Positions 8,584-52,672 of a stretch of 64,000 nucleotides of DNA are shown here, piece by piece. Every line of letters begins with the position of its first letter. Within the stretch, counting starts at the first letter, position 1. This DNA is from an uncultured Gammaproteobacteria bacterium (lineage in GTDB: Bacteria; Patescibacteriota; Patescibacteriia; Magasanikbacterales; UBA922): assembly GCA_964394405.1 (NCBI GenBank), contig CAYMVY010000002.1, positions 64,092 through 128,091 on the forward strand. The letters are read 5' to 3'. The position numbers and the translations under genes are program-made. Below the pieces are notes generated by a model that was not told the DNA's origin, did not search any database, and worked only from the letters and a program-made list of their open reading frames with translations.

Positions 8584-8657
8584 TCGGGGATCGTCTAATG
8601 GTAGGACTACAGGTTCTGGACCTGTGTATCGGGGTTCGAATCCCTGTCCCCGAGCCA
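8584..8657 (+). tRNA. tRNA-Gln (anticodon CUG), CCA encoded
   Basis: Acceptor stem UCGGGGA/UCCCCGA with U1-A72, anticodon loop uuCUGga, T-arm GGTTCGAATCC, 3' GCCA. Confidence 0.85.
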
Positions 8658-10867: not shown

Positions 10868-10942
10868 CCTTTGATTGACAATGTATAATAGAAGTGTTTA
10901 ACTTTTTCAAGTGTCTTTCCTCTTTTTGGTCGGAGTAAGCCA

Positions 10943-11167
10943 ATGACTAGTAGAAATTACGGTGCACGTCCGCCCCAGGGGGCTGAGTGGCAGATCGGGA
11001 AGACTGCTGCCTCAATCAAGTTCGTCAACGATGCTGTCCGGTACATCGAGACGTGTCAGAACGAGCAGGATCGAGGGAAGCTTCTCGGTGCGGTCGAGAA
11101 GCTCAAGCGTGGAGAAATGGTGCTCGAGGCCTCGCTCGACCCCGAAGACTTTCTCTCCCAAGAGTGA
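10943..11167 (+). CDS. hypothetical 74-aa protein in GC-rich island (extended -10 TGTATAAT at 10883-10890, GGAG Shine-Dalgarno)
   Basis: Promoter, Shine-Dalgarno, ORF and terminator arranged as a compact cassette; no homology recognised. Confidence 0.4.
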   Translation: MTSRNYGARPPQGAEWQIGKTAASIKFVNDAVRYIETCQNEQDRGKLLGAVEKLKRGEMVLEASLDPEDFLSQE

Positions 11168-17467: not shown

Positions 17468-18175
17468 ATGGCGAAACGACAAACCAAAATTCTCTCCATT
17501 GGAGGATCGATTATCATCCCCGCGACCGGATTTGATATCGCATTTCTCAAAAAATTCAAAGCCCTTATCCTCGGAGAAGTAACAAAGGGAACGCGATTTA
17601 TTCTCGTTGTTGGCGGGGGAGCGACTGCTCGCACCTATCAAGCTGGACTCAAAGCCTTGATTGGTAGTAATAATCATACACTCGATTTAATTGGGATTGA
17701 AACTACGCGACTAAATGCGAATTTTGTTCGATTATTTTTTGGTCCTCATGCATATGGTGAGGTTATTTTTGATCCAACTAAGCCGGTAAAAACACAAAAA
17801 TCTATTATTGTCGCATGTGGATGGAAGCCGGGGTGTAGTACTGATGCTGATGCAGTATTACTTGCGCGTGCGTATGGCGCAAAAGAATTGATTAATGTTT
17901 CAAATATCGAATATGTATACACCAAAGATCCGAATAAGTTTGCTGATGCGGAAAAAGTAGAAGTGATTGATTGGGAGACATATCGAAGAGAGATTGTAGG
18001 AGATACCTGGACACCGGGAAAAAATTCTCCATTTGATCCAATTGCAAGTAGAGATGCAGAGAAATATGGAATGAGTGTATCAATTGTTCGTGGATCTGAT
18101 CTTCTCGAAGTAAAGAAAGCGATTCAAGGAAAGAAATTCAAGGGTACTATTATTCGTCCATTCATCAGATTGTAA
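17468..18175 (+). CDS. pyrH: uridylate (UMP) kinase, archaeal-type
   Basis: VVGGGATAR, GIETTRLNA and ...DGVY..DP... motifs aligning with archaeal PyrH. Confidence 0.8.
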   Translation: MAKRQTKILSIGGSIIIPATGFDIAFLKKFKALILGEVTKGTRFILVVGGGATARTYQAGLKALIGSNNHTLDLIGIETTRLNANFVRLFFGPHAYGEVIFDPTKPVKTQKSIIVACGWKPGCSTDADAVLLARAYGAKELINVSNIEYVYTKDPNKFADAEKVEVIDWETYRREIVGDTWTPGKNSPFDPIASRDAEKYGMSVSIVRGSDLLEVKKAIQGKKFKGTIIRPFIRL

Positions 18176-18397
18176 GTAGATACACACGAATTACGCATTG
18201 CTGGTTAATGTTTTGAGTTTATTGGTGATTCGTATGTAATCGGTTTATACAAAAAGACCAGTTGTAGATTCTCCTTTTGCCACATCCGATATGTATCGGG
18301 TACAGCAATGGGGGTGCAACTGGTCTTGTTGTTCCCCCCGACTCGCGTGAGCGAGCTATTTCGGCAGTGATGCCGCTACGGTATCAGGGGCGGAGGC

Positions 18398-18628
18398 TTA
18401 GAAGCCTCCGATGTCGAGATCGCTCAGGGTTCGTGCGGGAACTTTCTGACTCTTGTTCTCCATGGTTGTGTTGGGCGGGGGAACGTGGCCACTGACCATC
18501 GTCGAGGGAGGGGGCACCTCCGTAGTCATCTCCTGCTCGGGCGGGTTCCAGGATGATTCCTGGGACATCACCACGATCAGGATGAGGACGATAATCAGTA
18601 CGATTACACCAATAATCGTGCCAATCAT
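18398..18628 (-). CDS. hypothetical small membrane protein (76 aa; N-terminal TM, Pro-rich tail) in GC-rich island
   Basis: Own promoter TTGACA-N16-TATACT (plus coords 18681-18708), GGAGA Shine-Dalgarno; alternative plus-strand ORFs are Arg-rich GC artefacts. Confidence 0.4.
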   Translation of the reverse strand: MIGTIIGVIVLIIVLILIVVMSQESSWNPPEQEMTTEVPPPSTMVSGHVPPPNTTMENKSQKVPARTLSDLDIGGF

Positions 18629-18764: not shown

Positions 18765-20567
18765 ATGAATGATGATATATCACGTATAAAAGAGAAGATC
18801 GATGTAGTAGATTTGATTTCCGAATATGTGCAGTTGAAGCCTGCTGGAATCAATCACAAGGGCTTATGTCCGCTACATCATGAAAAATCACCCTCATTTA
18901 TGGTGAATCGCGAGCGACAAAGCTGGCATTGTTTTGGGTGTGCAAAAGGGGGAGATATTTTTACTTTTATTCAGGAAATAGAAGGAATGGAATTTCGGGA
19001 TGCGCTTCGGTTTTTGGCAGACAAAGCAGGGGTGCAGTTGTCAAAAACGGTAAGCACTTCTGAAACAACACAGAAAAATCGCGTAAAAGATATCAATCGA
19101 GAGGCTGCAAAATTTTTTCATTATATTTTACTTAGATTGGATCAATCAAAGCCAGCGCTTGATTATTTGCTTACCCGCGGACTCACCAGAGAAACTATTG
19201 AGGCGTGGCAGGTAGGATTTATTCCAGATCAATGGGATTTGTTGACCAAATATTTGCTCAAAAAAGGACACTCGATTGATGATATATTGGCGTCCGGACT
19301 CGCAATTAAAAAAGATGGTGCAGATGCACGGAGTGGAAGAGGGTATTATGACCGGTTTCGTGGACGTATCATGTTTCCGATTTGGGATCCACATGATACG
19401 GTGGTCGGATTTACCGGTCGAGTACTTGTCGAAACCGAACACAGTGGGGGAAAGTATGTGAATACTCCGCAGACAGTATTATATGATAAATCACGAGTAC
19501 TATTTGGATTGAATAAGGCAAAGCGTGAAATCAAAGCGAAAGATCTGATTGTGATGGTCGAGGGTCAGATGGATGTGATTGCCTGTCATCAGGCTGGTAT
19601 GACTAATGTAGTTGCAACGAGCGGAACTGCATTGACTGAGCATCAGGTCCAGTTGCTCAAACGTTATTCGAATACAATTGCGATGGCATTTGATTCTGAC
19701 GCAGCGGGAATCGCTGCAGCAAAACGCGGTATCGATCTCTTGATTGAAGGTGGTATGAATGTAAAGGTGATCGTGATTCCTGAGGGAGCTGGTAAAGATC
19801 CTGATGAATGTATCAAAAAAAATACAGAGGTCTGGTTTGCATCTGTTGCTCAGGCGCAAGATATTATGAATTGGTATTTTGATCGGTCGTTTGCAGGTAG
19901 GTCAGTCAGTGATCCAAAACAAAAACAGAAAATTGCAGATGAATTGTTGCAGGAAATCTCTCGTATTCCTTACGCGGTCGAACGTGATCATTGGCTTTCG
20001 CAACTGTCACATCGGCTGGGTGTGGACGTATCTGTATTGCGTGAAGATTTGGTGAGGATAGCAAAATCTTCAGATAACAAAAGGGGAGAAAAAATTCAGC
20101 ATAAAACCGAGGTACACCCACTGGTCTCGGCGCCCAAAAAAGAACGGATAGACGTGTTACGTGAGCGTTTTTTTGGGTTGATTGTGGCATATCCGGATTT
20201 GGTTCCACAGATACCGCATAATTTCTTTATTTTGGACTCTTTTTCCACAGCCTGGGAAGGGGATCTTTACGAAACCATCAAATTGGGCTATACTCAGAAT
20301 ATTCCATGTGACTTTACACATGTCAGAGAACGCTATTCACAAGAACAGACTGAAAATCCATTTGACGTCCTTCTTTTAATTGGAGAGAAGGATTTTTCTG
20401 ATTTAAGTCCAAAGGAACGAGAAAATGAATTGAGGGATCTGGCAACACAGATCCGTTCGGAATGGATTAAGTATAAACGGGGCCAGATACAGGCAGAGCT
20501 TGCGCAGGCAGAAGCAAGAGGGGGGAATACTGACGAGCTGATTCGGTCCTTACAACAGTATCAATAA
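18765..20567 (+). CDS. dnaG: DNA primase
   Basis: CHC2 zinc finger (CPLHHEKSPSF...HCFGC), TOPRIM region. Confidence 0.9.
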   Translation: MNDDISRIKEKIDVVDLISEYVQLKPAGINHKGLCPLHHEKSPSFMVNRERQSWHCFGCAKGGDIFTFIQEIEGMEFRDALRFLADKAGVQLSKTVSTSETTQKNRVKDINREAAKFFHYILLRLDQSKPALDYLLTRGLTRETIEAWQVGFIPDQWDLLTKYLLKKGHSIDDILASGLAIKKDGADARSGRGYYDRFRGRIMFPIWDPHDTVVGFTGRVLVETEHSGGKYVNTPQTVLYDKSRVLFGLNKAKREIKAKDLIVMVEGQMDVIACHQAGMTNVVATSGTALTEHQVQLLKRYSNTIAMAFDSDAAGIAAAKRGIDLLIEGGMNVKVIVIPEGAGKDPDECIKKNTEVWFASVAQAQDIMNWYFDRSFAGRSVSDPKQKQKIADELLQEISRIPYAVERDHWLSQLSHRLGVDVSVLREDLVRIAKSSDNKRGEKIQHKTEVHPLVSAPKKERIDVLRERFFGLIVAYPDLVPQIPHNFFILDSFSTAWEGDLYETIKLGYTQNIPCDFTHVRERYSQEQTENPFDVLLLIGEKDFSDLSPKERENELRDLATQIRSEWIKYKRGQIQAELAQAEARGGNTDELIRSLQQYQ

Positions 20568-20587: not shown

Positions 20588-21940
20588 ATGGCACGGAAAC
20601 CATCGACAACCAAAGCAAAGAAACGACCTATAACCGCTTCAAAAAAAGCGGTACTATCGGCTCCTAGAGCCAAACACCCGACCCGACGCACTGTTGGGAC
20701 AAAATTGGGCGCGCAGTCGAAGAAAATATCCCGATTTAATCGGGCGAAATTTGTGGGGAAAAAATTTAGAAATAGGCATCATCAGCGTGGTGTACCGAAA
20801 CGCAAGACACCGATCGATGATCCAATTGTTTCTCCGACGTTTACTGAAATACAGGAATTTGTGAGTAAGGGTAGAAATCGAGGATTTCTTACTGAAAAAG
20901 AAGTCTTGCTTAAGTTTCCTCGAGCCGAGCACTATCTGGAATCATATGAACATTTTCTCAATCTTCTTGATAAAAATAGTATTTCTCTGGTTGAGGGTCA
21001 GGAGGGATTGCTTGGAGGTAATCATTCGGTAGAACGCAAGAGGGAAGTGTTGCAAGAATTTCAGGGTGCTCAGCCTGATAGCAACAGCGGATCTTATTTT
21101 GACCTCGGCAGTATTTCACAGGATTCAATCCAGATGTATTTGCGTGAGATCGGTAAAGTTCCTCTCCTCAGTGCTGAAGACGAGATGTCATTGGCAAAAC
21201 GAAAAGAGAGAGGGGACAAAGAAGCAGAGCGACGAATGATCGAGGCAAATCTTCGTCTAGTAGTTTCTATTGCAAAGAAATTTGTCGGAAAACAACTGTC
21301 TCTTCTTGATTTGATCCAGGAAGGAAACATCGGATTGTTTCGAGCGGTTAAAAAATTTGACTATCGCAAAGGATTTAAATTTTCCACGTACGCAACGTGG
21401 TGGATTCGTCAGGCAATTACCCGCGCACTTGCTGATCATTCCCGCACGATTCGTATTCCGGTTCATATGGTTGAAACGATCAATCGATTGCAACAGGTAT
21501 CACGACGGTTGCTCCAGGATTTGGGTCGAGACGGAACTCCTGAAGAAATTGCAGCTGAAATGGGAGAAGACGTTGAGAAAGTTAAACATATTATCAAGAT
21601 TTCTCAGGACACTGTATCACTCGAAACATCGGTCGGCGATGATGATGACGACGACACATCACTTTCAGATTTTATTGAGGATGTGAAGAACATCAGTCCC
21701 TCAGCTGCTGCTGGATCTGAACTACTCAAAGATTATATTCGCGAGGCAATACAAGATCTGTCTCCACGTGAAAAGAAAATTCTAGAAATGCGATTCGGAC
21801 TTGATGATGGTGTGACGCATACCCTGGAAGAAGTAGGTAAAGAGTTTGGTGTTACCCGTGAACGTATTCGTCAGATTGAAGCTAAAGCAATTGAAAAAAT
21901 AAAGAGTTTTGAAGTTATTGAGAAACTTAGTGATTATTAG
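20588..21940 (+). CDS. rpoD: RNA polymerase sigma-70 factor (primary sigma)
   Basis: Regions 2.4 ([13 protein letters not shown]), 3 and 4.2 present; acidic linker. Confidence 0.9.
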
Positions 21941-21963
21941 TCTTGTCTCAATAGTTAGTGAAT

Positions 21964-21992
21964 AAAAAAATCGGCAGTGTGCCGATTTTTTT
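21964..21992. terminator. bidirectional terminator aaaaaaatcggca-gtgt-gccgattttttt
   Basis: Seen directly. Confidence 0.6.
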
Positions 21993-22024
21993 ATCTACAC
22001 TTGTTTCCTTGGGGTTTCAATAGA

Positions 22025-22440
22025 AAACAAAAGTAGGCGGGGGTGGGGATTGGATGTCTCCCCACCTGTTTTTTGGGTGGGAGCAGGTCCTGGTGGGCTA
22101 CATTGGGGGTTTTTGAAAAACCCCGGAAGGAGAAAAAGAACTGTCCTCTATTCTTTTTTTTGAAAAGTGCAGAGGACAGTGAGACACTTATTCCGATAGG
22201 CCGTCACCTCTACCAGAACAGGTGTCCCAAAAAACTCAATCTTGCGTGCCCAAACAAGATTTTTTTGCCGAAGTGGGGGGTAGTCGGCGGCTCGCGCCAC
22301 AGGCAGCGTCACTGCCAACATTTGCGTTCCGGCAAGAGTTTTGCTGGGGGGAGGTGCCTCACGTCTCGTCCCCAGACTGTCCTCTGGGGGAGACGCAATC
22401 TCACCCACAGACTATAAGCGTGAGAACAAGCCTATGGTGT
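22025..22440. ncRNA. GC-rich, hairpin-dense noncoding island between two terminators; candidate structured RNA of unassigned identity
   Basis: GC spike in AT-rich background; perfect palindromes (ggggtttttgaaaaacccc; ctgtcctct...agaggacag); ORFs in all frames with heterogeneous composition; no promoter/Shine-Dalgarno-supported CDS. Confidence 0.35.
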
Positions 22441-22465
22441 ATGGGTGAATATATGCCAAACATAG

Positions 22466-22486
22466 ACAAAAAATGGTTTTTTGTCA
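22466..22486. terminator. bidirectional terminator gacaaaaaa-tgg-ttttttgtc (3' of sodA)
   Basis: Seen directly. Confidence 0.5.
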
Positions 22487-22512
22487 AATTTTTTTTGACC
22501 CCAATTTTGTTT

Positions 22513-23094
22513 TTATATATTGACGACTACTTCCCACCACGCTTTGATATACTCTGGGCGTTTGTTTTGATATTTGAGGTAGTACGCATGCTCCCAGACG
22601 TCTAATCCAATGATAGGGGTGTGTCCCTTGAGATAGGGTGAATCTTGATTGGGAAGAGAATATATATTTAGTTTTCCTTCTGTATCACGCGCGAGCCACG
22701 CCCACCCGCTTCCAAAATGTTTGGCTGCAAGTGTACTAAACTGTTCCTTGAAAGAATCAACTGAACCAAATTGAGCGGTAATTTCTTTTTTTAATTCACT
22801 ATCTTCGCGTTTACTTGGCCCCATGATCGACCAGTAGAGATTGTGGTTGACCAATCCGCCTCCATGATTGCGAAGTATGAGTCGGTCACCTTCCTCTACC
22901 TGCAAAGTATCGAGTGAACTCAATATTTCTTCTGCAGTTTTATCACTGAGTTCTTCGTATTTTTCAACAACCTTTGAAAAATTGTCTAGGTAGGTTTGGT
23001 GGTGCTTGGTATAGTGGATTTCCATAGTCTGTGCATCAATGTGCGGTTCGAGTGCATTGAAGTCGTAGGGAAGTTGGTAGAGTTGGTGTTTCAT
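22513..23094 (-). CDS. sodA: Fe/Mn superoxide dismutase
   Basis: HYTKHHQTY and C-terminal DVWEHAYY motifs. Confidence 0.9.
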   Translation of the reverse strand: MKHQLYQLPYDFNALEPHIDAQTMEIHYTKHHQTYLDNFSKVVEKYEELSDKTAEEILSSLDTLQVEEGDRLILRNHGGGLVNHNLYWSIMGPSKREDSELKKEITAQFGSVDSFKEQFSTLAAKHFGSGWAWLARDTEGKLNIYSLPNQDSPYLKGHTPIIGLDVWEHAYYLKYQNKRPEYIKAWWEVVVNI

Positions 23095-24569: not shown

Positions 24570-25142
24570 ATGCTCAACACTAGCTTACTTTCAAAAATTA
24601 GAAAAGATTTACTCTCATACGCCGAAGTACGTCAAAAGGTTATCAAAGATTCTAATGATGCACTATTTCAGGCAAAGCGAGTTATTTTTTCATTGCATCG
24701 TGACCAGGTGAAGGAGGCAAAGGAAAAACTCGAAGCGTCGAAATCGTTGTTGGTCAAAATTTCAAAAGAATATGGTCGAGACGAACGCGTGCTTGAGGAA
24801 GGCGCATATAAAGCAGCGCTTGAGGAATTTGTGGAAGCAGAATTATTTTATCAATTTGTTACTACGCATAAAATCGGGGATATCAAGGGAATCAAGGTGT
24901 CTCCTGAATCATATGTCGCAGGACTCACTGATGTGCCAGGAGAGCTCTATCGATATGCCATCAAAGCTGCTACAGCAAGAGATGAAAATACCGTAAAGAC
25001 GTGTGCGGAAATGGCTGAAGAAATTATTGGTGAACTGATCGAGTGCAATCTCACGAGCTATCTTCGCAATAAATTTGACCAGGCAAAAACCGCGGTGCAT
25101 AAAATAGAGCATGTAGTATATGAACTCTCTTTGAGAGATTAG
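24570..25142 (+). CDS. translin/TRAX-family protein (all-alpha nucleic-acid-binding/RNase family)
   Basis: C-terminal block SYVAGLTDVPGELYRYAI...LRNKFDQAKTAVHKIEHVVYELSLRD closely resembles the TRAX/translin signature (DYLLGvADLTGELMR...VYDLSIRG). Confidence 0.55.
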   Translation: MLNTSLLSKIRKDLLSYAEVRQKVIKDSNDALFQAKRVIFSLHRDQVKEAKEKLEASKSLLVKISKEYGRDERVLEEGAYKAALEEFVEAELFYQFVTTHKIGDIKGIKVSPESYVAGLTDVPGELYRYAIKAATARDENTVKTCAEMAEEIIGELIECNLTSYLRNKFDQAKTAVHKIEHVVYELSLRD

Positions 25143-31337: not shown

Positions 31338-31364
31338 AGGTTACTTGACAGTATGTTGCATTTT
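31335..31364 (+). promoter_or_regulatory. consensus-like promoter TTGACA-N17/18-TATCAT driving GC-rich small ORF
   Basis: Read directly. Confidence 0.45.
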
Positions 31365-31414
31365 TTTTATCATAAATTGAAACCTGTGCGTGTTTCCGAG
31401 GTGAGGGAGTCTAT

Positions 31415-31750
31415 ATGCCTGCGTACTTGATTACTACGGATGGGGTGAGGCTGTGTCCTCGGGATGGACTCAAGGGTATTCTCGATGAGAAGAGTACCTG
31501 TCCTACATTTGCGGTCTATTGGACCGCTCGTGAGTACGTGAGCCAGCTTCTGGTGGTCGGACAGTTTCCGACCTATGAAGCACTGTGCCACAAGGCTCGT
31601 TGGTCATTCGTCGCTCCTGCGCTTCCTCCTCACTTCGAACGATTCGACGGAGTGTGGAAGCTCACCGATGAGGGGCGGTGGGAGTGGGTTGCAGGAATGG
31701 TTGGGGTGATGCCTGATGCTGTTGCAGACGCGCTCTGTCTCAACAGGTAA
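31415..31750 (+). CDS. hypothetical 111-aa protein in GC-rich island (GAGGGAG Shine-Dalgarno)
   Basis: Promoter, Shine-Dalgarno, ORF and hairpin (ccggtcgc-ctaacac-gcgaccgg) cassette; no homology recognised. Confidence 0.4.
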   Translation: MPAYLITTDGVRLCPRDGLKGILDEKSTCPTFAVYWTAREYVSQLLVVGQFPTYEALCHKARWSFVAPALPPHFERFDGVWKLTDEGRWEWVAGMVGVMPDAVADALCLNR

Positions 31751-52199: not shown

Positions 52200-52228
52200 T
52201 TGACAATCCCCCTTTTTTGCGATAGTAT
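52200..52228 (+). promoter_or_regulatory. consensus promoter TTGACA-N17-TAGTAT followed by about 110-nt GC-rich structured leader
   Basis: Read directly. Confidence 0.45.
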
Positions 52229-52345
52229 GCCCAGCCGCTCTTTGAGAAATCCCTGCCTGTATGGGTAGGTCGGTCTCGGTAACGGGACTAAGAGGGTAAT
52301 TGCTCCTACCCTGCCCAAAGGAGTATCTAGGAAAGGATAAGGTCA

Positions 52346-52672
52346 ATGTCGCTGCAGCACATGAAGATCCTCCAGGGTCCCTGCAAGTTCCGCCTCATGG
52401 AGTCCCTGTTCCACGTCGCGGATGATCCGATCGATTACCCCCGGGAAGCGGTGACGTTCCTCGTGGAGTACAGAGGGGAGAAGTGCCGTATCTCGATCCC
52501 CTCGGTCGAGAGCATCGGACGTGTCTTCGGTGAGTACGAGACTTACCGAGTCAAGGGATATGGCAAGATGGTCCCGAACGCTGACCGTGCCAACTCCCTG
52601 TTCGAGCACCTGCCGGTCGAGCTCGTCTACTCGGTCCGGGACCGAAACGGGGTCGCTCAGGCCTCTTTCTGA
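52346..52672 (+). CDS. hypothetical 108-aa protein in GC-rich island
   Basis: ORF fills GC island; terminator hairpin ggccccga...tcggggcc at 52689-52723; no homology recognised. Confidence 0.4.
   Translation: MSLQHMKILQGPCKFRLMESLFHVADDPIDYPREAVTFLVEYRGEKCRISIPSVESIGRVFGEYETYRVKGYGKMVPNADRANSLFEHLPVELVYSVRDRNGVAQASF

Follow-up and report, generated by a model that had tools for sequence, protein, structure and literature searches.

Type I small RNAs (sRNAs) derived from 3′ untranslated regions (3′UTRs), such as DapZ and MicL, have a promoter of their own, are 80–150 nucleotides (nt) long and consist of a simple seed with a terminator hairpin. Bacteria also contain orphan non-coding RNAs (ncRNAs) of complex fold, among them the raiA motif RNA, OLE, ROOL and GOLLD, whose function is unknown. 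RsaC of Staphylococcus aureus is reported to be an atypically large structured 3′UTR-derived RNA whose length varies by isolate and whose structured part is conserved; it lies behind mntABC, is released by RNase III, represses sodA in trans and is tied to superoxide dismutase, manganese and oxidative stress (PMC6765141). The locus described here lies between rpoD and sodA in a stretch of 64,000 nt (the window; contig CAYMVY010000002.1, positions 64,092–128,091, forward strand). We put at roughly 60% the probability that it is a minus-strand gene, directly downstream of sodA, for a structured ncRNA whose family has not been described before. RpoD places the genome in the Patescibacteria, closest to proteins labelled Candidatus Magasanikbacteria, and a search of the literature found nothing on structured RNAs in this lineage.

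Conservation of the element between rpoD and sodA

The primary sigma factor gene rpoD (20588–21940, plus strand) and the Fe/Mn superoxide dismutase gene sodA (22513–23094, minus strand) converge on the region. Contigs with an RpoD 80–86% identical to that of the window retain this gene order, with an intergenic gap of 430–1320 nt, and the element was found in the slot between the two genes in every such contig, by a single-sequence nhmmer search and then by a profile search. Seven distinct sequences are available: those of the window, L083, L084, L171 (identical to L172), L085 (identical to L086), L087 and L170 (about the same as L168 and L169). The element is homologous over its full length in the six relatives, in which the RNA measures 320–460 nt, and it is 55–59% identical between genomes, as against 33–46% at the fourfold-degenerate sites of sodA. 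Conservation is confined to ~22131–22490; none of the relatives has the stretch 22000–22130, and in them the element is immediately adjacent to the rpoD terminator.

An earlier note on this DNA had singled out 22025–22440 as a GC-rich, hairpin-dense and unassigned structured RNA candidate. The compositional features that it named are all present. The GC content of this interval is 52.6% as against 41.4% window-wide, a value within the highest 1.7% among windows of 416 nt. There are palindromes at 22106–22124 (GGGGTTTTT/AAAAACCCC, also cited as the GGGGTTTTTGAAAAACCCC hairpin) and 22042–22066 (GGTGGGGA/TCCCCACC) and a hairpin ACTGTCCTCT...AGAGGACAGT at 22140–22180, and the motif ACTGTCCTCT occurs in two copies, at 22140 and 22376. 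The proposed limits need revision. The part from ~22131 to 22440 is conserved, but the left-hand 105 nt and two of the three palindromes are lineage-specific and lie outside the conserved RNA; at the other end, the 5′ hairpin (22402–22448) and a fourth conserved pairing partner of the repeated motif are at or beyond 22440. The central idea of a novel structured RNA is supported by the conservation, by the covariation of helices P1 and P3–P7 across the seven sequences, by the conserved promoter and by the lack of a coding signal. The GC peak is not unique in the window: several other GC-rich islands are small protein genes, so GC content by itself is no proof of an RNA.

Secondary structure and compensatory changes

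The features of the predicted RNA and of its promoter are given below in the order in which they would be transcribed.

22482–22487, minus strand: −35 box TTGACA; TTGACAA is invariant in all seven distinct homologs, in diverging flanks
22459–22464, minus strand: −10 box TATGTT, exactly 17 nt past the −35 box
22131–22455, minus strand: predicted RNA of ~320 nt, with its start taken from the promoter and its end from the terminator
22402–22448, minus strand: P1, a long 5′ hairpin of 14 pairs, five with compensatory changes; 92% of cells paired
22361–22396, minus strand: P2 hairpin of 11 pairs, three with compensatory changes; its apical CAGAGGACAGU (22386–22376) is complementary to 22180–22170
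22343–22356, minus strand: C-rich segment CACCUCCCCCCAGC (consensus CCUCCnCCAGAGAAA), conserved in all homologs; alternative partner of the P2 3′ arm
22336–22342, minus strand: P3 5′ arm AAAACUC, pairing with 22231–22237; 7 base pairs (bp) in six of seven sequences, 6 bp in L083
22330–22335, minus strand: P4 5′ arm UUGCCG, pairing with 22265–22270 (CGGCAA, the ‘GCCGAA’ motif); stacked on P3
22320–22328, minus strand: unpaired motif AACGCAAAU inside the P4 domain; AACGYRMAU in six of seven homologs, GACGCACAU in L171
22302–22316, minus strand: P5 hairpin GGCAG-UGACG-CUGCC; the stem sequence varies among homologs and complementarity is kept
22238–22261, minus strand: P6 hairpin AAUCUUG...CAAGAUU, abutting the P3 3′ arm; seven different stems
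22231–22237, minus strand: P3 3′ arm GAGUUUU, partner of the P3 5′ arm in a long-range helix
22181–22228, minus strand: P7 domain (GGGACAC...GUGUCUC) around an inner hairpin; GACAC/GUGUC alternates with GGCA/UGCC among homologs
22170–22180, minus strand: strand d, ACUGUCCUCUG, partner of either the P2 loop (pseudoknot) or 22140–22149 (terminal hairpin)
22131–22149, minus strand: 3′ arm of the terminal hairpin AGAGGACAGU and U-run UCUUUUUCU, a perfect 10-bp stem and then the U-run; intrinsic terminator predicted in this genome

P3 closes a three-way junction with P4, which has P5 inside it, and P6, and the order of the helices is identical in all seven sequences. The last pair of P3 runs through the replacement series C-G, U.G and U-A, and two pairs in, C-G is exchanged for U-A. 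The arms of P4 differ in six of the seven homologs and are complementary in all of them, and four pairs of P6 show compensatory changes in the model-based alignment. Amid these changing helices the RNA keeps four unpaired motifs, CCUCCnCCAGAGAAA, AACGCAAAU, GCCGAA and GAGUUUUUUG.

In the 5′ domain 91% of cells are paired and eight pairs have changed on both sides. Its covariation score is 0.398 as against 0.28 in shuffles, none of 500 of which reached 0.398, and slid controls gave at most 0.145. The 3′ domain, aligned with a covariance model, holds six compensatory pairs, with a score that was likewise reached by none of 500 shuffles. In arm-swap duplex energies the cognate arms are 2–6 kcal/mol more stable than the swapped ones for P1 and P3–P7 (cognate and swapped, in kcal/mol: P1, −19.3 and −12.9; P3, −3.2 and −1.2; P4, −8.4 and −4.0; P5, −4.7 and −2.4; P6, −6.3 and −1.4; P7, −9.4 and −3.2). 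P3, P4, P5 and the pseudoknot were scored on hand-defined arms; the central region is misaligned in both the full-length (519 columns) and the 3′-domain MAFFT alignments. A pairing UGAGGCA/UGUCUCA, predicted in the window by minimum free energy (MFE), is not conserved and was set aside in favour of P7.

Promoter, strand and predicted 3′ end

The minus-strand site at 22487–22459 is the best-scoring one of a promoter scan (10/12). Both the 17-nt spacing and a TAnnTT −10 box are kept in all seven homologs (TATGTT, TATTTT three times, TACTTT and TAGTTT), and the adjoining spacer cannot be aligned. Given this conserved site of the sigma-70 type, transcription should start near 22452–22455 and run leftwards. 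Perfect sites of the form TTGACA-N16–18-TAnnWT number four in the window, the promoter of the RNA among them.

The earlier note had left the strand open. For one and the same alignment the RNAalifold energy is −35.2 kcal/mol when read as the minus strand and −21.3 kcal/mol when read as the plus strand, and the counts of G-U to A-C in predicted pairs are 42:7 and 21:18, respectively. Together with the promoter, this fixes the functional RNA on the minus strand, where 22131–22455 has an MFE of −134.9 kcal/mol (z = −8.05). A functional plus-strand RNA, extending rpoD at its 3′ end, would account for the strand symmetry of the hairpins, for the folding of 22020–22450 beyond dinucleotide shuffles on the plus strand as well (z = −4.4; minus strand, −7.3) and for the slightly lower plus-strand MFE in L083 and L085. 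We regard it nevertheless as extremely unlikely: the strong rpoD terminator precedes the region, the scan found no promoter on the plus strand, and the conserved promoter, the consensus folding energy and the G-U/A-C ratio all favour the minus strand.

To judge from the sequence, the 3′ end of the RNA in the window should be set by the perfect hairpin ACUGUCCUCU...AGAGGACAGU and the adjoining UCUUUUUCU (22180–22131; hairpin CTGTCCTCT/AGAGGACAG). In the relatives the terminal hairpin is weaker and lacks the U-run, and the shared rpoD terminator comes right after it, so that the perfect stem and U-run are peculiar to the window; the 3′ end of the RNA in the relatives should be this shared, symmetric terminator. 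We infer that a lineage-specific insertion of 130 nt parted the RNA from the shared terminator and that the terminal hairpin then took over termination. Two features lie beyond the predicted 3′ end.

21962–21994, symmetric (A-run, stem, T-run): rpoD terminator, a 15-nt perfect inverted repeat; its equivalent lies directly after the element in the relatives
22000–22130, outside the conserved RNA: lineage-specific spacer with two hairpins (22106–22124 and 22042–22066), missing from all relatives

Of the two terminators by which the earlier note had the region bracketed, that of rpoD is real. On the sodA side there is no convincing terminator, and a conserved minus-strand promoter is found there instead. 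The spacer, located between the terminator of the RNA and that of rpoD, has only a slight folding advantage over shuffles (z = −2.5). Its minus strand contains the mutually exclusive hairpins CUCCCACC...GGUGGGGAG and GGUGGGGA...UCCCCACC, as well as GGGGUUUUU/AAAAACCCC. The plus strand of 22036–22186 was considered as an inverted partial copy of the 3′ domain and rejected, as the 26-bit match consists only of the palindromic terminal hairpin and a generic hairpin.

Tests against known RNAs and protein genes

At gathering score, the 4227 families of Rfam 15 gave a tRNA only in the window and nothing in 56 kb of eight related loci; among the families that stayed below the threshold are raiA, OLE, ROOL, GOLLD, HEARO and the riboswitches. 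At E ≤ 10, the elements of the window, L087 and L084 gave sub-threshold terminator look-alikes only, which differed from member to member. ARAGORN found a tRNA-Gln at 8584–8657 as its only hit in the window, and no transfer-messenger RNA (tmRNA).

The suggestion of RNase P RNA or tmRNA, made in the earlier note on the ground of size, is not supported by these searches. Neither RNaseP_bact_a nor RNaseP_bact_b has a covariance-model match in the window or the eight related loci. The element resembles RNase P RNA in length and in a GAGGA(C/A)AGUC-like sequence that pairs over a long range with a strand near the 3′ end, and the P2 loop GAGGACAGUCUGGGG agrees at 12 of 17 positions with conserved region I (CR-I; GAGGAAAGUCCGGGC) of RNase P RNA. 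It differs in that the CR-I-like string stands in another pairing register, in the absence of a ACAGAAnCCGGCUUA-like strand (conserved region V, CR-V) and of a P1 formed from both ends, the 5′ end being a local hairpin, and in the lack of a model match. Because of its register, its lack of CR-V and its unpaired ends, the element is no member of the RNase P RNA family.

For tmRNA, the element has no tRNA-like domain, no tag reading frame and no Rfam match. Its fold is multi-domain with local 5′ hairpins and not, as in 6S RNA, an end-closed rod with a central bubble, and 6S RNA gave no Rfam match either; nor did signal recognition particle (SRP) RNA, 4.5S or large bacterial, at any threshold used. 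With no match in Rfam or ARAGORN, the element is not RNase P RNA, tmRNA, 6S or SRP RNA. A highly divergent version of one of these housekeeping RNAs could be argued for from the size, which is in range, from the consensus promoter, which suggests abundance, and from the likeness to CR-I. The idea has next to no probability in view of the failed searches, in three members even at E ≤ 10, the unpaired ends, the want of a CR-V partner, tRNA-like domain, tag open reading frame (ORF) or rod with a central bubble, and the absence of the element from the slot in relatives with an RpoD 72–77% identical.

The statement of the earlier note that no ORF in the region is supported also stands. Between members, tblastx gives matches of at most 33 amino acids (aa) scattered over all six frames and no conserved ORF, and no frame with a start signal is conserved among the relatives. 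L084 and L171 have no sense-strand ORF of at least 30 aa, indels between members are of arbitrary length and not multiples of three, and the mechanical ORFs of the window (86 aa, minus strand; 124 aa, plus strand) have no Pfam match. These results speak against the proposal that the locus, in keeping with the genome's other GC-rich islands, codes for a small protein or is a pseudogene in decay. In its favour are those two ORFs, the three other consensus promoters of the window, which drive GC-rich small ORFs with ribosome-binding sites, and L175, where the same slot and promoter drive a GC-rich ORF of 114 aa. Compensatory base-pair changes would not be expected under decay, and the element has no similarity to the 114-aa protein, so that a pseudogene of the latter was rejected; we give the proposal almost no credence.

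The three other perfect promoters (10875–11167, 31345–31750 and 52200–52672, all on the plus strand) each precede a GC-rich small ORF, of 74, 111 and 108 aa, respectively. The GC content at third codon positions reaches 0.82 in these ORFs, in a background of 41% GC, and each has a Shine–Dalgarno-like site. None has a Pfam match, and together they resemble a class apart, made up of highly expressed or foreign cassettes.

Probable pseudoknot and alternative pairings

The P2 loop and strand d form an 11-nt perfect inverted repeat in the window (22376–22386 with 22170–22180), and their complementarity extends over 6–12 bp in all eight units, the second unit of L170 being counted separately. The core changes in step on the two sides: GGACAG/CUGUCC in five sequences, GGGCAG/CUGCCC in L085 and GGCAG/CUGCC in L170. 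The second unit of L170 has its own matched pair of P2 loop and 3′ strand, AGAGGGCAG/CUGCCCUCU, so that each tandem unit matches its own partner. In seven of the eight units, pairing of the P2 loop with strand d is more stable than the terminal hairpin. A pseudoknot between the P2 loop and strand d is likely, and is rated no higher because the sequences are too conserved for proof by arm swap.

A second alternative pairing, between the P2 3′ arm and the C-rich segment, is a perfect 11 bp in L085, where a change in the P2 3′ arm is compensated in the C-rich segment and not in the P2 5′ arm. The CUGUCCUCU strand has two possible partners, the P2 loop and the arm of the terminal hairpin, and so does the P2 3′ arm, namely the P2 5′ arm and the C-rich segment, which makes two mutually exclusive conformations possible. 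In this genome they might decide whether the terminal hairpin forms as a terminator.

Such an arrangement recalls a riboswitch-like sensor, in which a ligand or protein would pick either P2 with the terminal hairpin or the P2 loop–strand d pairing with that of the P2 3′ arm and C-rich segment, and so set stopping at 22131–22139 against reading on, with short and long isoforms as the outcome. A chain of five segments whose neighbours are complementary (e:d, d:a, a:b, b:c) is present in all units, the terminal hairpin of the window has a perfect stem and U-run, and the junctions carry conserved unpaired nucleotides. There is, however, no gene downstream on the minus strand for a cis-regulatory leader to act on; the next feature is the convergent rpoD, and all that follows is the antisense of its 3′ end behind a strong bidirectional terminator. 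As the hairpin of the relatives lacks the U-run and the terminator follows at once, control of termination is excluded as the function that is conserved. There is no match to a known aptamer family, and we consider a sensor of this kind very unlikely.

The element as the probable 3′ end of the sodA transcript

The stop codon of sodA begins at 22513 and the −35 box at 22487, with no terminator between them on the same strand. The spacer between the sodA stop codon and the element holds no GC-rich terminator in any of the seven genomes, the best folds being A/U hairpins of −4 to −11 kcal/mol, whereas L175, which is without the element, has a canonical terminator after sodA. As sodA is without its own terminator in the seven genomes that bear the element, the latter probably doubles as the sodA 3′UTR. 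The RNA could then have two sources, transcription that reads through from sodA and initiation at its own strong promoter. Two features of a type I 3′UTR-embedded sRNA are present here: a position directly downstream of a coding sequence (CDS), on the same strand, and a promoter of its own as predicted from sequence. As to a conserved seed for target mRNAs, the conserved C-rich segment is unpaired, but duplex predictions against the start regions of sodA, dsbA and rpoD pointed to no consistent site.

The same facts admit a purely cis-acting 3′UTR, whose fold would terminate or stabilise the sodA mRNA and shield rpoD from convergent transcription, the ‘promoter’ being incidental or minor. The element does always lie directly downstream of sodA on its strand, sodA has no terminator to itself in the seven genomes, and the element ends in or beside one. 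But a terminator needs ~40 nt and not 320–460 nt with seven covarying helices and conserved junction nucleotides, L175 makes do with a simple one, and the −35 box, the spacing and the −10 box are exactly conserved amid a spacer that cannot be aligned. On balance this explanation is unlikely, if the one among the alternatives to which we give most weight, and an independently transcribed RNA is preferred.

Additional units, distribution and neighbouring genes

A second tandem copy of the element is present in L170 (2350–2761, minus strand; the same in L168 and L169). It is shorter and more AT-rich, with no terminator between the copies, is recognised by both covariance models and contains a ~32-nt direct repeat TATTCTGAGGGTAAGTCTTTTACAGAAGCCCC in two copies. 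In L087 (4425–5160, minus strand) the rpoD–sodA gap is 1.3 kb and holds two extra units beyond the homolog of the element, both of them with an intrinsic terminator and a TTGACA-17-TAnnnT promoter. Across the two units there are three copies of a motif composed of outer stem, AGGACC, hairpin, ACC(G/A)A and outer stem; one has a possible hydrophobic ORF of 61 aa, and neither has an Rfam match. In L175 (4951–5295, minus strand; RpoD 77% identical) the canonical sodA terminator is followed by a promoter of the same kind, TTGACAAAAAA, driving the 114-aa ORF with a strong ribosome-binding site. The rpoD–sodA slot seems to accept differing GC-rich cargo.

Scans of the GTDB species genomes with RpoD and of the JGI metagenomes with SodA yielded relatives at most 62% and 68% identical, respectively, none of which has the element. 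Of two motif scans run on viral contigs, one had no match and the other 46, which look fortuitous and were rejected as homologs, none being confirmed by a covariance model.

Two genes from sodA, 24570–25142 (plus strand) encodes a 190-aa protein with a Translin domain (PF01997), which the relatives retain in this neighbourhood; the Translin family is known mainly from eukaryotes and archaea. The primary sigma factor has a very Lys/Arg-rich N-terminal extension of ~170 aa (20588–21100, plus strand) that aligns with the closest relatives only. Another GC-rich island, at 18390–18628 (minus strand), resembles a small membrane protein gene, which starts with ATGATTGGCACGATTATTGGTGTAATC and has the hairpin GGAGGCTTCTAAGCCTCC after it, and is not an RNA candidate. 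It sits between an ORF of 235 aa (17468–18175; AA_kinase in the Pfam calls of the relatives) and one of 600 aa (18765–20567; DnaG-type primase domains).

Weight of the evidence and possible role

Several points weigh against the locus being an ncRNA gene of a new family. The central-domain alignment, P3–P5 and the pseudoknot were set by eye, which can bias pair counts, and with only seven fairly close sequences the covariation statistics are of limited power. In P2 and the pseudoknot, conservation leaves cognate and swapped arms at −12.7 and −12.2 kcal/mol, too close for the swap test to prove the pairing. As the three other GC-rich islands behind such promoters are protein genes, a promoter alone is no sign of an RNA gene. 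Where the transcript starts and ends, and how abundant it is, are predicted. The more distant L173, L174, L175 and L176 (RpoD 72–77% identical) have no profile match to the element at the same slot, which holds protein genes or lies in a different neighbourhood, and the family may be very young and narrow. Finally, an anti-Shine–Dalgarno-like CCUCC in the element has no obvious role: among the 46 ORFs of the window of at least 150 aa, only four have a Shine–Dalgarno-like site in the 21 nt before the start codon.

The case for this CCUCC as an anti-Shine–Dalgarno decoy is weakened by that count; duplex predictions against the start regions of sodA, dsbA and rpoD were uninformative. These three genes have no Shine–Dalgarno-like sequence, and translation initiation in this organism appears largely independent of Shine–Dalgarno pairing.

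If the locus is indeed the gene for a structured ncRNA, its conserved multi-junction fold with variable peripheral insertions suggests that the RNA would act through its three-dimensional shape. Most likely it would be stable and act in trans, as a scaffold for protein binding or as a regulator in the oxidative-stress and metal context of sodA; a simple antisense RNA or a bare terminator is less likely. More ambitiously, it could be a new class of complex-fold RNA that performs a biochemical task, for instance to catalyse a reaction or to bind a particular protein or metal of the oxidative-stress pathway, which we hold to be distinctly unlikely. If that were true, the alternative pairings would be a true conformational switch and the extra tandem units (the second of L170, the second and third of L087) would make the sodA–rpoD gap a nursery of such RNAs in Patescibacteria.

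The Patescibacteria, or Candidate Phyla Radiation (CPR), have tiny genomes with few recognisable regulators, and we know of almost no described ncRNAs in them beyond the universal ones. For such a genome an RNA of 320–460 nt with its own strong promoter and a conserved architecture is expensive, and that it is kept points to a likely important role in this oxidative-stress locus (sodA, dsbA). The narrow known distribution limits its present importance. The element is a candidate for RNA-based regulation, or for an RNA–protein complex, in an uncultured lineage, and its sequences furnish a seed alignment for a new RNA family.

Comparison with described systems

The nearest analogues of the element are functional, not homologous: the type I 3′UTR sRNAs, RsaC and orphan RNAs of the raiA/OLE kind. 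With DapZ and MicL it shares the position directly downstream of a CDS on the same strand, an internal promoter and a 3′ end or terminator in common with the upstream mRNA. Unlike them, it is 320–460 nt long and has a three-way junction, seven covarying helices and a probable pseudoknot between a loop and the tail.

RsaC is closer, being reported as a large, structured, 3′UTR-derived RNA of varying length, with a conserved structured part, that is linked to superoxide dismutase and oxidative stress. The present element differs in lying behind sodA itself and in having its own promoter, and it shows neither sequence similarity to RsaC nor an Rfam match, nor any sign of pairing with sodA mRNA.

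In architecture the element is most readily set beside raiA, OLE, ROOL and GOLLD. Like these it appears to be a stand-alone transcript with promoter and terminator, a multi-junction fold that includes long-range helices or a pseudoknot, peripheral insertions that vary around a conserved core, and a fixed gene neighbourhood. Unlike these it has no Rfam match and is confined so far to one Magasanikbacteria-like clade, and it is smaller than OLE, ROOL and GOLLD. The predicted RNA would represent a new family of a known general kind, the independently transcribed, 3′UTR-embedded structured ncRNA, which is unusually large and complex for that kind and is known from one narrow clade.

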